Below, in pieces: positions 1,550 to 14,962 of a stretch of DNA of 64,000 bases; position 1 is the first letter of the stretch, and every line of letters begins with the position of its first letter. Position numbers and translations under genes: made by a program. Under the pieces are notes generated by a model. That model saw only the letters and a program-made list of their open reading frames with translations. It had not been told where the DNA came from and made no database searches. This stretch comes from Clostridia bacterium (GTDB lineage: Bacteria; Bacillota; Clostridia; Oscillospirales; CAG-272). Location: positions 10,240-74,239 of the forward strand of contig JAFVWS010000044.1 of assembly GCA_017501545.1 (NCBI GenBank), read 5' to 3'.

Positions 1550-3214
1550 TTAAGTTGGCTGTGTGCAATTCATTGCGATGAGTTCTGAAAGAACTATAAT
1601 AACTATCTTTCCTTCCTCGTTTACAGCCTTGATAACTGCATATGAATCGTAGTCAAAGGTGACTAATCTTTCACTAAGTGAAAGGGTTGCGTCACAAATA
1701 GTGTTTCCTTGTGGGTCATATACTGTTAGCACCTTGTGCACTGGTATAGATGCCTCGTTTCTTACGGTTTCAAGCGTGTAAATGTATCCCTCATGGAAGA
1801 ATATTTCGATATCGTCTGTGTCGATTGCAAGCACGCTTGGCTCACTACCCACCTTGATTACAAGATATTTTGTATTAAGAGTCTCGGTGTCCTCAAGGGA
1901 AACAACAGCGGCACTTGAAGAAATATATTCAAGATTTGCGTCGTTATCCTTAAGTGAGTAAACAACGTTTAGGCCGTGGTCGTAAATTGTGGTAGGAGTT
2001 ACAATTAGCTTCTCGTTTGCATAGGAAACGTAATCAAGAGTGCCGATTAGGTTGTCGTCCTTGTCGTAAACCTGGGTTGTAAAGGTGTCTCTTACAATAT
2101 ATGTATTGTCGCTTAATACATTAAATACCTTTGATTCGTTTGCAAATGGCAAATCTCTGTATGTGCCGTCATTATAAAGAAGGATTGTAGCCCTTGATGA
2201 ATTGCCAGAGTAAACAAGCTCCTTGTTGTTGATTAACGTACCAACAGCAACGTTTTGCGCACCGTAAGGAAGCTTTTCGCTTGAGGTTACGCTGGAAAGA
2301 AGATAAGGCATTGTAATTTCCTTATATGTAAGCGTTGCAAGGTCATAGAAGAATGTGTCAAGCTTGTAGCAAGTGCCGTTTAATACGTAGTCATAGTTGC
2401 GCTTTTCAACGTCTGGTGAATAGTCGCAAACCTTACCACTTACTTGGAAAATAACGTTTCCGTTTTCAAGCGTGTATTTTGAGTAATTTGTGTTAGCAAG
2501 TGGGCTTAATGCGTTTGGCGCAAGCTGTTGCGTTGCCAAAAGCTTGTATGTGCTACCAAATACGTAAAGTGTGTTTGATTCGTAGAATACGTATAAGCCA
2601 TCGTAGCAAGTAAGGTCCTTTATAATAGCAGAAACAATAGAGTCTGAAAGGTCCTTAACTAAAGACATTTCGCCGTTTTTGTATTCATAAACCTTGTCGT
2701 CGGTAAGAATTCTACCATCGTTAAGATATGTAATTTCATAGTCGCTCTTTAAAAGCTCCTTGCCCTCGGTTGAGCGTACGATATATTCAGTTGTGCCACT
2801 TGCCTTTGTGCCAGCAACTGTGAAAACGTTATCGCCAAATGAAACGCTAACACTCTTATAGAGTGATGAATAAGCCTTTTCCTCAATAGAATATTCAATG
2901 CTTACTGAGTAAACGGCCTGCTTTGTGTGAACGTTATAAACTGTGTGTGTTGAGGTGAGGTGTGTTTTTGCCTCGTTTAATGACTCTTGAGTTGCTACGT
3001 AAACAAATGATTCATCTGCGCTTTTGTAGCCTGAGTCAATTACGAAGCTGTCAAAGGTGTCAAATTCATTGTAATCAGCCTTTGTGTCCTTGATTTCATC
3101 AAAGAAGGAAGGGGTGTCCTCTTTTTCGCCATTATTTGGGAAAAGACAAGAGGTTAAAACAAAGGGAATACATAAAGCAAATACTAAAAGAATTGCTAAA
3201 GCTTTCTTTTTCAT
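1550..3214 (-). CDS. Lipoprotein of unknown function
   Basis: Likely start is the ATG at 3214 with AAGGAG RBS (the track start at 3277 is too long). Signal MKKKALAILLVFALCIPFVLTSC carries a lipobox. No family recognised. Confidence 0.8.
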   Translation of the reverse strand: MKKKALAILLVFALCIPFVLTSCLFPNNGEKEDTPSFFDEIKDTKADYNEFDTFDSFVIDSGYKSADESFVYVATQESLNEAKTHLTSTHTVYNVHTKQAVYSVSIEYSIEEKAYSSLYKSVSVSFGDNVFTVAGTKASGTTEYIVRSTEGKELLKSDYEITYLNDGRILTDDKVYEYKNGEMSLVKDLSDSIVSAIIKDLTCYDGLYVFYESNTLYVFGSTYKLLATQQLAPNALSPLANTNYSKYTLENGNVIFQVSGKVCDYSPDVEKRNYDYVLNGTCYKLDTFFYDLATLTYKEITMPYLLSSVTSSEKLPYGAQNVAVGTLINNKELVYSGNSSRATILLYNDGTYRDLPFANESKVFNVLSDNTYIVRDTFTTQVYDKDDNLIGTLDYVSYANEKLIVTPTTIYDHGLNVVYSLKDNDANLEYISSSAAVVSLEDTETLNTKYLVIKVGSEPSVLAIDTDDIEIFFHEGYIYTLETVRNEASIPVHKVLTVYDPQGNTICDATLSLSERLVTFDYDSYAVIKAVNEEGKIVIIVLSELIAMNCTQPT

Positions 3215-3331
3215 AGTAAACTCCTTAAGAATTATTATTTGTATTAACATTATATCAAATAATGCGCGTTTTGTCAATTCGCTTCACAAAAAGTTAAATT
3301 TTACAAGCGGGAAATAAAGGGTGCACCGAAA

Positions 3332-3696
3332 GCGTGTTATCCTTAACGGAAAACTTGAAAGCTCTTTCAAATCTTGTTGAGAGCCAGCATCACATTTGTA
3401 TACACAATTCAGTTGGGCAGAAGCCCAAGCAACCCCACTAACAACAGAAAAGAGAAGATTCGTTTTTAAGCGAGTATTCCTTTCCCTTTGTCTGTTAAGT
3501 GATATGCTGACTAAAGCCAGCGTGATATTTTCGCTTTGCGAAAGTGATATTGAAGCCTTATGGCTTCAGTGATATTCTTTTCGCCATAAACTTGCGAAGC
3601 AAATATCACTCGGCACAAGCCGAATAACACTGCGTAGCAATATAGTTCGCCGTGTGCGAATAGAACTGGCGTGATACTCCGTTAAGAGTATCACGC
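3332..3696 (+). repeat. 'Comb' repeat element copy 1 (core AGTGATAT(T)/(A)ATATCACT), MITE/REP-like
   Basis: Four forward and several inverted core words separated by mini-hairpins. Ends in the perfect hairpin GCGTGATACTC-CGTTAA-GAGTATCACGC (3669-3696). The left end 3332-3350 is a 16/19 inverted match to it. Confidence 0.8.
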
Positions 3697-3722
3697 CGAA
3701 CGCACCCTGTGTTTATTTTGGT

Positions 3723-5771
3723 TTATTTTACCTCGTTTGGCTTAACCTTTGATGCAAGCTGGGCTGGAACCTCCTCGTATCTTACGAAGTGGAACGTAAA
3801 GTTTCCTCTGCCCTGTGTCATTGCACGAAGAGCGATAACGTAGTCTGTCATCTCAGATTTAGGAACCTCAGCCTCAACAATTGAATACTTAGGACGCTTT
3901 GCATCTGGCTCCATACCAAGCACACGGCCACGACGCTTGTTAAGGTCGCCCATTACGTCGCCAACCATAGACTCAGGCACGGAAACCTTAAGCGTTCCAA
4001 TTGGCTCAAGCAAAACTGGTCCTGCCGCAGTTAATTCCTTATATGCAAGGCGTGCAGCAAGCTTAAACGAAAGCTCGTTTGAGTCAACGTCGTGGTATGA
4101 GCCACCAGTTAAATCGGCACCAAGGTTAACCATAGGATAACCAAGAAGCACGCCACTTTCCATGGCTTCTACCAAGCCCTTTTCAACAGCTGGGAAGTAA
4201 TTCTTTGGAACCTCACCACCAACAACGCTTGTTGTAAACGTAAGTCCCTCGTTGTCCTCGCAGTGTGAGAATGTAATTTTAACGTGTCCGTATTGACCAG
4301 CACCACCGGATTGCTTCTTGTGCTTGCCCTCTACGCTGATTGTCTTTTTAATTGTTTCTCTGTATGCAATCTTAGGCTGAACAAGTGAAATTGATACACC
4401 ATATCTGTTCTTTAGCTTGCAAACAACGGTATCAAGGTGAACGTCACCAATACCCTTAAGAAGCAATTCTCCAGTTTCAACAAAGTTTTCATACTTAACG
4501 GTCTTATCCTCGTCAAGCACCTTTGCAATTGCGTTAGCAACCTTGTCCTCGTCCTTGCCGTCGGTCTTGATTGCCATGGTCATATTTGCCTCTGGGAATT
4601 CGATTTTTGCGTACTCTGTGTCTGATTTTTCGCATAGAGTGTCACAAGTATTAGTGTTAGTAAGCTTAGCGATAACACCGATATCACCACAAGCAAGTGA
4701 GTCAACCTCGGTTTGCTTTTTACCACAGATTGTGTAAATCTTAGAAAACTTTTCGCTTGCTCCCGTGGAAACGTTTTTAAGAACCATATCCTTCTTTAAT
4801 TCGCCATTCATAACCTTGAAGAAGGAGAAGCGACCTACAAATGGGTCTGAAATTGTTTTGAATACAAACAGCCTGCACTCACCCTCGCGCTCGATTGCAA
4901 CGTCGTTGCCATTTACGTCCTTCTCAACCTTTTTGGCTGTGTGACGTGGGAAGGATTGTGAAATTGAGGAAAGAATTGAGTAAATACCTCTCATGCTCTC
5001 TGATGAGCCACACCATACTGGAACGATAGAGCCAGTAATCATACCCTCGTGAAGCGCGTTTGCACACTCATCCTCGCTAAATCTCTCGCCCTCGAAGAAC
5101 TTTTCAAGCATTTCCTCGTTGGTTTGTGCGCAAGCCTCCATAAATATCTCTTGGTATTTTTCAGCTATTTCAAGACGAGATGGGGTCATTTCCTCCTCTT
5201 GTCTTTCACCGTTAGGAAGATAACGGAAGCACTTCATTGTCTTTAAATCAACCATCATTGTACCATTAGGCTCCTTGATAGGAATGAAAACAGGACAAAG
5301 CGCGTTTCCAAATTCCTCTCTTAGCTGGTTGAATACTCTGTCAAAGTCAGCATCTGGGTCGTCACATTTATTAATAAAGAAGGCTCTTGGAAGTCCTGCC
5401 TCAAGGGCGTTATACCAGCCTATTTCAGTGCCAACCTCCAAGCCTGATTTAGCATCGATATTGATTAGCGCTGCATCAGCAACTCTAAGTGCGCTTGCAA
5501 CCTCGCCTGCAAAGCCAAGAAAGCCAGGACAGTCAATAAGGTTAATCTTACAGCCCTGCCACTCAAGGTTAACGACGGACAAGCCTATTGAAATACCTCT
5601 TTTGATTTCCTCTTGGTCGTAGTCAGAAACTGTGTTACCGTCGCAAATTCTACCTAAGCGGTCAGTTGCCTTAGCTCTGAATAGCATAGACTCGATAGTT
5701 GCAGTCTTACCACTTCCGCTGTGACCTATTAAGCACACGTTTCTAATTTCATTTGTTGCAAATTTTGCCAT
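3723..5771 (-). CDS. fusA: Elongation factor G paralog (EF-G2/EF-G II type)
   Basis: GHSGSGKT, EEIKRGISI, DCPGF, NKCD and KKQSGGAGQYG; 682 aa. The G-motifs deviate from canonical EF-G, so this is a paralog. Confidence 0.9.
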   Translation of the reverse strand: MAKFATNEIRNVCLIGHSGSGKTATIESMLFRAKATDRLGRICDGNTVSDYDQEEIKRGISIGLSVVNLEWQGCKINLIDCPGFLGFAGEVASALRVADAALINIDAKSGLEVGTEIGWYNALEAGLPRAFFINKCDDPDADFDRVFNQLREEFGNALCPVFIPIKEPNGTMMVDLKTMKCFRYLPNGERQEEEMTPSRLEIAEKYQEIFMEACAQTNEEMLEKFFEGERFSEDECANALHEGMITGSIVPVWCGSSESMRGIYSILSSISQSFPRHTAKKVEKDVNGNDVAIEREGECRLFVFKTISDPFVGRFSFFKVMNGELKKDMVLKNVSTGASEKFSKIYTICGKKQTEVDSLACGDIGVIAKLTNTNTCDTLCEKSDTEYAKIEFPEANMTMAIKTDGKDEDKVANAIAKVLDEDKTVKYENFVETGELLLKGIGDVHLDTVVCKLKNRYGVSISLVQPKIAYRETIKKTISVEGKHKKQSGGAGQYGHVKITFSHCEDNEGLTFTTSVVGGEVPKNYFPAVEKGLVEAMESGVLLGYPMVNLGADLTGGSYHDVDSNELSFKLAARLAYKELTAAGPVLLEPIGTLKVSVPESMVGDVMGDLNKRRGRVLGMEPDAKRPKYSIVEAEVPKSEMTDYVIALRAMTQGRGNFTFHFVRYEEVPAQLASKVKPNEVK

Positions 5772-12269: not shown

Positions 12270-12590
12270 GCGTGATACTCTTAACGGAGTATCACGCAAT
12301 CAAATCCGTCTTCGACGGGTGAAATCCACCTTAGGCGGATGAAATCGCTTTCGCGATGAAATCCTGCTTCGCAGGGCTGCAACCTGACGGATTTGATTTC
12401 ATCCAAGGGCTTGACCTTGGATTTCATCTGAGCAAAGCGAAGATTTCATCGTGGTGTAACCACGATTTCATTAAACCAACAAAAAAGAGAGAACGTTTCG
12501 GATAGACCGATTTGTTCTCTCTTTCTGCTTGTGTAGGGGTTCCCCGAAACGAATGTAATGAGCTTTGGGGGTTCACGTATATGGGCTTGA
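12270..12590 (-). repeat. 'Comb' repeat element copy 2 (core GATGAAATC/GATTTCATC), left end missing
   Basis: Same 28-nt hairpin (reverse complement at 12270-12297). Shares CAAGCAGAAAGAGAGAACAAA with copy 3. Abuts the GH95 stop codon. Confidence 0.8.
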
Positions 12591-12592
12591 GC

Positions 12593-14962
12593 TTATTTTG
12601 TGAAATCAAGCGTCTCGTTTTTGCCACCCTTAAGCGCTATTTTGTAAGAGCCTTCGCCACAAGGCACAGCCTCTACACTTGATTTTAAAAGGGTCGAGTA
12701 ATCACGAGATGAAAGGGTAATTTCAGTATCATTTTTTGCTAAAAGTGATACCTGCGCATGTGATTTATCCCATTTGATGGAAACAGAGGTGCCCACTTGA
12801 GTGTATAGATTTGTTACATTGCCACACTCAAGGCCATCTGGTAGTGCAGGTAAAATATCAAGCACACCCTTAGGTGTAGAATATAGCAGTGATTCGTAAA
12901 CGGCAGATGTAAAGCCCATATTCGCATCGATTTGATAAGGTGGCTTGCCACAATGGATATATTTCAGAGTTACACCCATATTGCGCCAGTCGTTATGGTA
13001 GGTGAATAGGTTTTGACCAGTGCAGAAGCGAAGAAGCAGGTCAAGACATTCCTTAACACCACGTCCGTCCTTTAATCTTGCGTAAATATTCGCCATATGG
13101 GCAAGTGACCAGCCAGTTTGCTCCTTTAAGCCAATTACAAGGCGCTTTTCAACTGCAACCCTCATTGCCTCAAACAGCTCACTGTTTTCATAGCCTACCT
13201 CATAGCCAGGGAATAGTGGATAAATATGAGATTGGTGTCTGTGGTGGTAGTTGTCAAGAAAGTCACCGTGTAGCCATTCCTTAATAGCACCGTCGGAGTT
13301 GATTTCATACTCTGGAATAGCACTAAGCATTTTTTTCCACTCCACCACCTTTTCTTGGTCGGTGTTAAGAAGCTCACTTGCTTCGATAAGGTTGGTCAAA
13401 AGCTCCTTTAGAAGTGCAAAATCCATGGTTGGGTTAATAGAGACGCTGATTTCTCCACCACCCTCGAAAATGCCGTTTGGTCTATTCTCTGGGGAGTTGG
13501 CAGGGTATGACTTTAGCTTGCCGTTTTCATCGTAAACGTAAAAGTCCTCGTAGAATTGCGCACATTCCTTCATAAATGGATATGCACGTTCTCTTAAAAA
13601 GTCTAAATCCTTGGTGTACTGGTAGTATTCGTAGTAGATTGCACTAATCCAAGCAGAGCTACCTGTCCAGTATAAGACGTGAGGCTGTAAATTTTTCTTT
13701 TTACCGCACCCGTTGTCCATAAATAGGGGTAAAAGTAGTCCACGACAGCCATATAGCTTGCGCGCATTTTCGCGATAATCCTCTTTAAATTTATCATAGA
13801 GGTTGAATAGTGGCAAAAGCGATTCGCTAAGTCCACCACGGCAAGCCTGCCAGTATGCCATTTGAATATTTTCGTTGTTGAAATATGTGCAAGCCCAGGC
13901 AGGAGAATAGTCACCATTCCACATTCCTTGTAGGTTTGCAGGATAATTACAGCCAACGGAGGAGGAAATTAACAGGTATCTACCGAAATCAGCCATTTTT
14001 TCAATTAGGCGAGGGTCAACCTTGCCGTTATAGCTGTCTAAAAGTAGCTCCTCACAGGAAGAGTTTTCACCCTCGCAAAGAGAGAGTCTGGTTCTGTTAA
14101 AAAGTGAAGAAAAAGCGACCCTGTGTGCGTTTTTTATCTCCTCATAGCCGTTTTCAAACGTCAATTTATCATATAAAGCCTCGCCACCGACATGGCACTG
14201 ATCAGCTGTGATTGCAATAACTATTTCGCAAGCATCCCTGATTCCGAGAAAGCCATCAAATGCGCTTGTGCCACACATATCAATTTTTCTTTGCTTACCC
14301 TTGGCAAGATAAATTTCACCATCTGTTTTTATAATTTTTATCATGCCCGAGTAGTGTAGCCCGCCCATTGTCTTAAACTCAGAGTAGATTGCGCCATTAT
14401 ACATCTCGGTCCTTTGCTCAGAGCTTCCACCAGCGTCGGGTAAATCATATAAATCATGCTTTTCAAGCGCAAGCTTTACGCCGAATTTTTTGTCAGCACT
14501 AAGCCTTACGAAAACTGCATTTTCCTTGCTGGATGCGAGGATTTCACGGCTTAATTTAGCACCATTTTCCTTATAGGAAACGCTTGCAATACCATTTTCT
14601 AAATCAAGGCATCTTTGGTAGTCGGTAAAAAAGCCCTCGTTATCAAAAAGAAGGTGCATATCAAAGGCAGGATAGAATTTTCCGCTTGATGGGCGATAGC
14701 CCTTTTCCTCAAGCCTTTTAGTGTAGTAGCTCTCAGCGGTTATATAATCCCCCTTGTCCATAAGGTCGCGTACTTCCTTTAGGGAGCTTGAAATATCAGG
14801 GATTTCCTTGTCCTCACACCAGTTAAACAGCGCCTCGTGATTTATTAAAATCCTCTCGTCATAGACTGCACCATAAATAAGAGCGCCAAGTGTGCCATTG
14901 CCGATAGGTGTTGCATCGTTCCACCTTGTTGCAGGGTATTTGTTAATAAGTATTTTTTCCAT
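12593..14962 (-). CDS. GH95 alpha-1,2-L-fucosidase-like glycoside hydrolase
   Basis: ATPIGNGTLGA, FGRYLLISSS, PANLQGMWN, NENIQMAYW, SPEN, HRHQSH and YQIDANMG motifs. Probable start is the ATG at 14962. Confidence 0.9.
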   Translation of the reverse strand: MEKILINKYPATRWNDATPIGNGTLGALIYGAVYDERILINHEALFNWCEDKEIPDISSSLKEVRDLMDKGDYITAESYYTKRLEEKGYRPSSGKFYPAFDMHLLFDNEGFFTDYQRCLDLENGIASVSYKENGAKLSREILASSKENAVFVRLSADKKFGVKLALEKHDLYDLPDAGGSSEQRTEMYNGAIYSEFKTMGGLHYSGMIKIIKTDGEIYLAKGKQRKIDMCGTSAFDGFLGIRDACEIVIAITADQCHVGGEALYDKLTFENGYEEIKNAHRVAFSSLFNRTRLSLCEGENSSCEELLLDSYNGKVDPRLIEKMADFGRYLLISSSVGCNYPANLQGMWNGDYSPAWACTYFNNENIQMAYWQACRGGLSESLLPLFNLYDKFKEDYRENARKLYGCRGLLLPLFMDNGCGKKKNLQPHVLYWTGSSAWISAIYYEYYQYTKDLDFLRERAYPFMKECAQFYEDFYVYDENGKLKSYPANSPENRPNGIFEGGGEISVSINPTMDFALLKELLTNLIEASELLNTDQEKVVEWKKMLSAIPEYEINSDGAIKEWLHGDFLDNYHHRHQSHIYPLFPGYEVGYENSELFEAMRVAVEKRLVIGLKEQTGWSLAHMANIYARLKDGRGVKECLDLLLRFCTGQNLFTYHNDWRNMGVTLKYIHCGKPPYQIDANMGFTSAVYESLLYSTPKGVLDILPALPDGLECGNVTNLYTQVGTSVSIKWDKSHAQVSLLAKNDTEITLSSRDYSTLLKSSVEAVPCGEGSYKIALKGGKNETLDFTK

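Follow-up and report, generated by a model that had tools for sequence, protein, structure and literature searches.

A gene-less mobile element in the terminator loop of an elongation factor G paralog, and the likely targeting of its family to hairpin tips

What is a 366-nt block of hairpins doing inside the transcription terminator of an elongation factor G (EF-G) paralog? The question is raised by a 64,000-nt stretch of the genome of a Clostridia bacterium (GCA_017501545.1), hereafter the window, in which this block, copy 1 of a repeated element, occupies 3332-3697. Coordinates are window positions unless a contig is named. The genome under study (G000, 1.86 Mb) and those compared with it are all metagenome-assembled genome (MAG) drafts, from which multi-copy insertion sequences tend to drop out. 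Copy 1 sits within 3300-3720, between two minus-strand genes, one for the EF-G paralog (3723-5771) and one for a lipoprotein-like protein (1550-3217). Its longest internal open reading frame (ORF) is 58 aa, and it has no transposase gene. We show that copy 1 integrated in the intrinsic terminator of the EF-G paralog, namely in the apical loop, and that the two halves of the terminator stem now lie 377 nt apart. We also show that its family, found in uncultured gut Clostridia, resides almost only in the 4-6-nt loops of hairpins built as A-run, stem and T-run, in unrelated sequence and in either orientation. We suggest, with a probability of roughly 0.8, that copy 1 is a non-autonomous element of the MITE type (miniature inverted-repeat transposable elements), and that the family is targeted to hairpins by an enzyme acting in trans.

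The split terminator consists of the following parts, some of which can be matched to element-free ("empty") alleles of the same site:

3723-5771, minus strand: gene of the EF-G paralog, 682 aa, NCBIfam NF009381, owner of the split terminator
3312-3324, unstranded: left half of the split terminator stem, AAATAAAGGGTGC, with the core AGGGTGC at 3318-3324; complementary to 3702-3714
3325-3331, unstranded: ACCGAAA, remnant of the terminator top and loop, holding the left CCGAA; same as the empty allele up to ...CACCGAAA
3698-3701, unstranded: GAAC, linking the element and the right stem half; GAA is at the position of the short direct repeat of the family
3702-3714, unstranded: right half of the split terminator stem, GCACCCTGTGTTT; complementary to 3312-3324

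An earlier reading of the window, made from the letters alone (the sequence-only reading), had proposed that an element entered this terminator loop. The flanking words on which it was built, AGGGTGC at 3318-3324 and GCACCCT at 3702-3708, were placed correctly, and the complementary arms reach 3312-3324/3702-3714 (13 nt, 85%). Excising 3331-3700 in silico does yield AGGGTGC-accgaac-GCACCCT, the empty hairpin that was predicted. The search for empty alleles behind the EF-G paralog, which that reading had proposed, covered contigs whose EF-G protein is either identical or altered at 2-3 residues (0-3 differences overall). Six conspecific contigs (L013, L014, L017-L019, L022) are empty: exactly where the window is interrupted, the left stem half adjoins the right half directly in an unbroken terminator hairpin, AGGGTGCACCGaaaaaaCGATGCACCCT. 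Five contigs (the window, L015, L016, L020, L021) are filled, with junctions identical to those of the window. The intergenic length is 146 nt in the empty state and 505 nt in the filled state, and both states are found with an identical EF-G protein sequence. Thus, the proposed insertion in the terminator loop is borne out. The exact form of the predicted hairpin is not, since the actual empty allele reads ...AAATAA-AGGGTGCACCG-aaaaaa-CGATGCACCCT-GTGTTTATTTT.

In sister species, 9 clearly orthologous loci were examined, and only a simple terminator hairpin follows the EF-G paralog gene. For example, the terminator in G010 is AGGGTGTTGCaacaaGCAACACCCT, with the homologous hairpin AGGGTGTTGC-aacaa-GCAACACCCT. 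Because simple hairpins occupy the orthologous loci, the element-free state is ancestral. The filled contigs fall into two haplotypes with shared junctions; within the element, about 13 sites and a small indel set them apart. These shared junctions point to one insertion event, which would since have spread or persisted.

The terminator may have survived the insertion. The stem of the empty allele has 11 bp, including one A.C mismatch on the plus strand that is a U.G wobble in the EF-G-sense RNA. In that sense it folds with a U6 loop and a U-rich tail (-20.7 kcal/mol, z = -5.0). The minimum-energy fold of the filled EF-G-sense RNA closes AGGGUGC/GCACCCU around the whole insert (-149.8 kcal/mol, z = -8.0), and this agrees in silico with the earlier proposal that the stem can still close around the element. 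As judged by this predicted fold, termination may be kept in the filled allele; it might also be weakened, or moved to the terminal hairpin of the element, for which a 13-bp stem and the tail AGUUCUAUUC predict a terminator-like structure.

The element between the two stem halves is organized as follows:

3332-3351, plus strand: left terminal inverted repeat, GCGTGTTATCCTTAACGGAA; 16/19 inverted match to 3678-3696
3352-3496, plus strand: left module of three hairpins, a small one (stem 3350-3375), TTGGGCagaaGCCCAA (3413-3428) and a long one (3443-3496); homologous modules in other copies
3497-3580, plus strand: left comb, four repeats of a unit made of the word GTGATAT and a hairpin; Rfam Gut-1 (RF01706), 44.9 bits, E = 1.3e-7
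3568-3610: central hairpin linking both combs
3598-3668, minus strand: right comb, mirror of the left, the word ATATCAC plus hairpins; Rfam Gut-1 on the minus strand, 29.8 bits
3668-3697, plus strand: terminal hairpin GGCGTGATACTC-CGTTAA-GAGTATCACGCC, right end of the element; perfect 12-bp stem, with the 28-nt core 3669-3696 as the family hallmark

The inverted match of the two ends was first noted in the sequence-only reading and is confirmed here for 3332-3350 (GCGTGTTATCCTTAACGGA). The left-end 20-mer is also an end of other copies in the genome, and the family consensus of the terminal inverted repeat is G(G/C)GTGATGTTCTTAGCGGAG. The stem of the small hairpin in the left module shares 2 nt with this repeat. 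The gathering score of Gut-1 is 50 bits; copy 1 scores under it on both strands, and copies 2 and 3 score over it (52.9 and 53). The core of the terminal hairpin is laid out as arm, centre and arm of 11, 6 and 11 nt. Its 6-nt centre is CGTTAA in 44 and the flipped TTAACG in 9 of the 53 orientable copies, and the left inverted repeat keeps its orientation when the centre is flipped.

Copy 1 is one of many. At least 13 full copies emerge when the 1.86-Mb genome is scanned for the inverted repeat, and 7 exact copies of the 28-nt hairpin core are present there. This core occurs in 34 of 50 genomes of the genus, in about 125 mostly exact copies; upward of 120 MAG contigs of uncultured Clostridia, for the most part from ruminant guts, have it as well. 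Searches for the core in viral contigs found none, and copies 1 and 3 have no similarity to any of 72,556 plasmids.

The proposal that terminator loops are the target is supported across the family, almost all members of which are in such loops. Each of the 12 full copies listed in G000 is enclosed by complementary stem halves, and nearly all have an A-run before and a T-run after. Flanking stems reach 7 bp or more in 37 of 41 distinct full copies and are imperfect in the remaining four. The flanking stems have no common sequence. A perfect stem of at least 10 bp at the distance of the element surrounds 23 of the 99 terminal hairpins that have enough flank; in a control window 330 nt farther out, the count is 0/99. 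The geometry is regular as well: the left loop remnant is usually 4-5 nt, and in 25 of 37 copies a gap of 2-5 nt separates the right end from the 3' stem half. Orientation relative to the flanking genes is unbiased, with 13 copies between convergent genes and co-directional copies split 6 versus 7.

Two more sites, on contigs C20 and C4, are polymorphic among conspecific contigs. At C20, the empty allele is GCAAGCACC-gaaat-GGTGCTTGC and the filled allele is GCAAGCACCga-AAT-[GGGTGATG...CACGCT]-AAT-GGTGCTTGC, with a clean 3-bp AAT repeat. At C4, GCACCG-aaag-(T/C)GGTGC is replaced by GCACCGaaaa[GAGCGATG...CACGCT]aagCGGTGC. Empty alleles were also sought at C18, C14, C8, C29 and copy 3, where filled contigs alone were recovered, and two Joint Genome Institute (JGI) metagenome scans found no further ones.

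These findings suggest how the family may move. An enzyme supplied in trans would pick its target by DNA shape, as the tip of an extruded hairpin or cruciform, and not by sequence. The regular geometry would be hard to obtain by selection on random insertions, which argues that the integrating enzyme chooses the hairpin tip. The same enzyme would recognize the element via its conserved terminal hairpin. Three variants of this hairpin with compensated arms coexist in G000 (GCGTGATACTC / GAGTATCACGC; GCGTGTTaTCC / GGATAACACGC; GCGTGATgTCC / GGACATCACGC), and because they do so in one genome, the fold would be read and not the letters alone. A terminator loop would then be a safe site, since no gene is broken and the stem is still able to close around a structured insert.

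The junctions carry a short direct repeat, though not the one that was first proposed. The sequence-only reading had seen CCGAA on both sides, at 3326-3330 and 3696-3700, where it does occur, and had taken it as a 5-bp target duplication. This is weakened because the first two right-hand bases belong to the element: the conserved 28-nt core ends with the first C (3696), and the second (3697) is element-borne and pairs with G3668. In the family at large, the base after the hairpin pairs with the base before it in 29/41 copies and tracks the subfamily (aactG...C or agttA...T). Moreover, the empty allele holds one CCGAA, a 5-nt identity of the flanks is seen in 0/41 copies, and the repeat of the family is 2-3 bp long. 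Within the CCGAA of copy 1, GAA is the sole part at the position of the family repeat. Breakpoints that miss CCGAA had been named beforehand as evidence against an insertion; the duplication is lost on this point, and the insertion stands.

What the family does have is a match between the last 3 nt of the left flank and nt +2 to +4 after CACGC. These three are identical in 18/41 copies (permutations, 7.7 +/- 2.2; 0/2000 reach 18). The dinucleotide at -3..-2 equals that at +2..+3 in 35/41 copies (permutations, 24.1 +/- 2.0). The short repeat fits either a partly decayed 3-bp staggered cut, as made by a DDE transposase, or a 2-bp crossover core of a recombinase.

Several observations weigh against the reading as a mobilized, hairpin-targeted MITE. 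The junction of copy 1 is unclean: compared with the sole empty allele found, the loop and upper stem have lost or changed 7-8 nt. The empty allele has 8 nt (AAAACGAT) in place of a C of the filled allele, and AAACGAT where the filled allele has GAAC at 3698-3701. This extra difference could be a rearrangement at insertion, as in the staphylococcal element TnSha1, or reflect insertion in an unsampled terminator variant. A test for a target duplication of fixed length gives the clean 3-bp AAT at C20; the flanking 3-mers of copy 1 are AAA and GAA, a misfit with the empty allele, and they become GAA/GAA when the left end is moved by 1 base. Perfect repeats in just 18/41 copies are few for a genuine 3-bp target duplication. 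In addition, the family has no autonomous partner among the sequences searched. No pair of the inverted repeats encloses a transposase in the 110 loci or the genome, and each of Y1_Tnp, DUF772, DDE_Tnp_1, DEDD_Tnp_IS110, rve and Resolvase is lacking in several copy-rich genomes of 93-97% completeness. The draft MAGs may have lost an autonomous partner insertion sequence.

Each of these domains was considered as a mobilizing partner and rejected. The IS200 Y1_Tnp domain (PF01797) is missing from G062, G052, G042 and G012. Among five copy-rich genomes, the IS1182 domain (DUF772, PF05598) is in one and the IS4-type DDE_Tnp_1 (PF01609) in two, and neither is in G000. For IS110 there are weak matches alone, in ORFs of about 1440 aa that are of polymerase size. 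The rve domain (PF00665) is missing from G000, G042 and G012. A serine recombinase fails because G000 is without any Resolvase-domain gene. In fact G000 is without all these transposase and recombinase domains except for an IS200 fragment at a contig end. There (C46:1-300), the 3' part and right end of an IS200-type transposase gene abut the start of the contig, beside the terminator hairpin CCACCAGCttaGCTGGTGG. Probably a multi-copy IS200/IS605 element is unassembled in G000. RAYT-like Y1 proteins were likewise rejected as partner; their association with the element is incomplete and their genes are unflanked by the hairpin.

We consider other explanations of the same data. In one of them, the whole block would be an extended Gut-1 non-coding RNA gene, with the flanking stems as its covarying closing helix P1 and the U-tract as its own terminator. 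The Rfam matches within the element, the highly stable predicted fold (z = -8.0) and the enclosure of each copy by a different stem followed by a T-run all suit such a gene. However, at three sites sister strains have the same stem halves linked by 4-6 nt of loop, without the element. Since the halves are joined in element-free strains, the stems pre-exist as host terminators, and a gene with a closing helix of its own is ruled out by these empty alleles. The presence of both orientations relative to flanking genes (co-directional 6 versus 7) and the lack of a convincing promoter upstream of most copies (the best site at copy 1 matches 9/12) also argue against it, so that we give this explanation almost no credence. 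It is also improbable that insertion is near random and only copies in terminator loops survive selection. Terminator loops are plausibly neutral places, and the searches turned up no enzyme known to prefer a structure. Yet selection alone would have to account for flanking stems of at least 7 bp in nearly all of the 41 copies and for the constant distances at both ends of the element. Survivors would also be expected in other intergenic DNA, and none is among the 12 full copies listed in G000.

Two further explanations concern the enzyme. The element could be a circle moved by site-specific recombination of serine- or tyrosine-recombinase type at a 2-bp core and not by DDE transposition, with the short repeat as the crossover core and the 28-nt core as the core-type site of the recombinase. 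We think this unlikely, though it has points in its favour: the dinucleotide match is kept far better than the 3-nt match, a 2-bp AA core would explain the filled/empty pair at C4 without any extra change, the 6-nt centre is flipped in some copies, and the 11-6-11 layout resembles that of dif- or lox-type tyrosine-recombinase core sites. But the junctions lie outside the 28-nt site and not at its centre, and G000 has no Resolvase-domain gene even though two of its sites are polymorphic among strains. Mobilization as single-stranded DNA by RAYT-like Y1 (HUH) transposases, which would bind the terminal hairpin as RAYTs bind repetitive extragenic palindromic (REP) sequences, is doubtful. Three RAYT-like proteins of about 170 aa are encoded in G000, such proteins are encoded by 21/34 genomes with the hairpin versus 4/16 without it, and recognition of a fold with compensated arm variants would suit HUH enzymes. 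On the other hand, the compared genomes are kin, so this association is not independent, and the gene is missing in G012, G042 and G021, which are 96-97% complete and have 6, 6 and 2 hairpins. The three genes in G000 have no such hairpin within 700 nt. Y1 elements are typically without terminal inverted repeats or target duplications, and the inverted and short repeats seen here are at odds with this. Beyond the hairpin-targeted MITE, it is conceivable, though not likely, that the family represents an undescribed integration system. In such a system a shape-reading enzyme would accept any short hairpin tip as its target, the conserved hairpin (28-nt core) would serve as the donor end, the crossover would span 2-3 bp, and cassettes would move with or without genes. 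Gut-1 would in that case not be a cellular non-coding RNA but a piece of the element's DNA or RNA machinery.

The hairpin-targeted MITE can be compared with known systems. IS1272 and TnSha1 of staphylococci, members of the IS1182 family, integrate in hairpin-forming inverted repeats of unrelated sequence, many of which are proven terminators (Furi et al. 2016, PMC4923244). The cut made by TnSha1 is blunt and falls in the stem; it leaves no target duplication, part of the target is always deleted, and a passenger gene may be carried (PMC4923244). The present family is similar in having hairpin targets without a sequence consensus, missing target bases at copy 1 and passenger genes in relatives. 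Unlike them, it hits the loop, two of the three filled/empty pairs (C20 and C4) are clean with a 2-3-bp repeat, and most copy-rich genomes have no IS1182-type transposase (DUF772, DDE_Tnp_1). IS1397 and ISKpn1, of the IS3 family, insert in REP palindromic units, which are small extragenic palindromes (PMC1525189, PMC3184786). The family here is like them in inserting within a small extragenic palindrome. They are autonomous IS3 elements with one repeated REP target, whereas our element is gene-less, its targets are unrelated terminators, and rve is missing in G000, G042 and G012. Clement et al. 1999 reportedly found such insertions in the central loop, with a 3-4-bp duplication, which would match our family in geometry and in the size of the repeat. 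IS1630 (IS30 family, Mycoplasma fermentans) is described in PMC3317919, citing Calcutt et al. 1999, as duplicating the whole inverted repeat of 16-26 bp. Here the stem is split and not duplicated. Membership in the IS1272/TnSha1, IS1397/ISKpn1 or IS1630 families fails on the transposase, the junction type or both.

MITEs and mobile insertion cassettes, such as MIC231 of the Bacillus cereus group, are short, multi-copy and transposase-free, are bounded by terminal inverted repeats and are polymorphic among strains. Our family resembles them in its terminal inverted repeats, small size and dispersed copies, in the presence/absence polymorphism at copy 1, C4 and C20, and in having longer versions with cargo; by form, copy 1 would be classed with the MITEs and those cargo-bearing relatives with the mobile insertion cassettes. 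It differs in its interior, which is an elaborate conserved set of hairpins and not a deleted transposase gene. We know of no parent insertion sequence with the same ends. REP and REPIN sequences with their RAYT transposases are another case of a conserved multi-copy extragenic hairpin (PMC2817692, PMC3333891). The likeness extends to the presence of RAYT-like Y1 proteins in the genomes. The differences are that the RAYT-like genes are unflanked by the hairpin and are lacking from some copy-bearing genomes, and that the element is 366 nt long with inverted ends and a short flanking repeat. Derivatives of IS200/IS605 (PATE) differ in that inverted repeats and a short repeat are present here and PF01797 is missing in the four genomes named above. 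Finally, Weinberg et al. 2010 (PMC2864571) put forward the Gut-1 RNA motif (RF01706), for which gut metagenomes were the sole source, as a non-coding RNA standing by itself; this is the one mention of the internal arrays that we found in the literature. The Gut-1 model detects the two hairpin arrays of the element, which here form an internal module, on both strands, of a mobile DNA element.

Some relatives carry genes. About 5 of about 100 sampled copies (L059, L094, L118, L151 and L157, from related Clostridia MAGs) are 0.9-1.4 kb long. In these, the space from the inner module to the left inverted repeat holds passenger genes that read from the hairpin end toward the left repeat, some with a terminator of their own. 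The passengers include a SAM-dependent methyltransferase (SAM, S-adenosylmethionine), a PF05635 four-helix-bundle protein, a HAD hydrolase and small membrane proteins or lipoproteins; no recombinase is among those of the sampled cargo versions. Terminator stems enclose these longer versions as well, and the short repeat of the family is present at them too. PF05635 is the 23S rRNA intervening-sequence protein, and its genes are unusually abundant: 45/50 genus genomes have them, up to 7 each, frequently at the ends of contigs. The idea that this passenger ties the family to 23S rRNA intervening sequences was rejected, as 0/33 PF05635 loci bear the ends of the element.

If the reading as a hairpin-targeted MITE is right, the filled and empty alleles within one species are a clean natural example of targeting by hairpin shape, and the choice of terminator loops would be a safe-site strategy. 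The orphan Rfam family Gut-1 would be re-read as an internal module of a transposable element. Such elements could ferry passenger genes to the 3' ends of operons, and an enzyme that inserts DNA in any small hairpin would be of interest to mobile-DNA biology and for building tools. For annotation, copies would otherwise be mistaken for non-coding RNA genes or very long "terminators".

Shorter forms of the element also occur. Copy 2 (12270-12600) and the copy at C18:89400-89781 are a version without the left ~100 nt, starting with GGGCTAAGCCC / GCTCAAGCCC, and the C18 copy is still inside a terminator stem, AGGGCAGAgAAT / ATTCTGCCCT. Solo 28-nt hairpins without a comb are found at the tip of terminator stems in L042, L049, L099 and L142, e.g., GGGCGACCATA-[28 nt]-TATGGTCGCCC. 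Such solo hairpins might be either remnants or minimal units.

As for the genes around copy 1, the EF-G paralog scores 787.8 bits against the NCBIfam NF009381 "elongation factor G" subfamily (cut-off 583) and is under the TIGR00484 equivalog cut-off. The canonical fusA-tuf pair is on a separate contig, C15. The gene on the other side of copy 1 has the following site:

3249-3277, minus strand: promoter-like site of the lipoprotein-like gene (1550-3217, minus strand), TTGACA-17-TATAAT with an upstream TG; 12/12 consensus matches

Because the lipoprotein-like gene has its own promoter-like site, this next gene need not rely on read-through from the EF-G paralog. In the sister species G013 (L004), a different multi-hairpin array, with the word GATTCCATA and two tandem units, lies about 100-560 nt past the terminator of the EF-G paralog; it adjoins and does not split the intact terminator, CGGTGAGC-aaac-GCTCACCG. 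At the start of the window, the plus-strand ORF at 2-1507 consists mostly of degenerate 12-27-nt repeats that encode units rich in E, P, V and Y.

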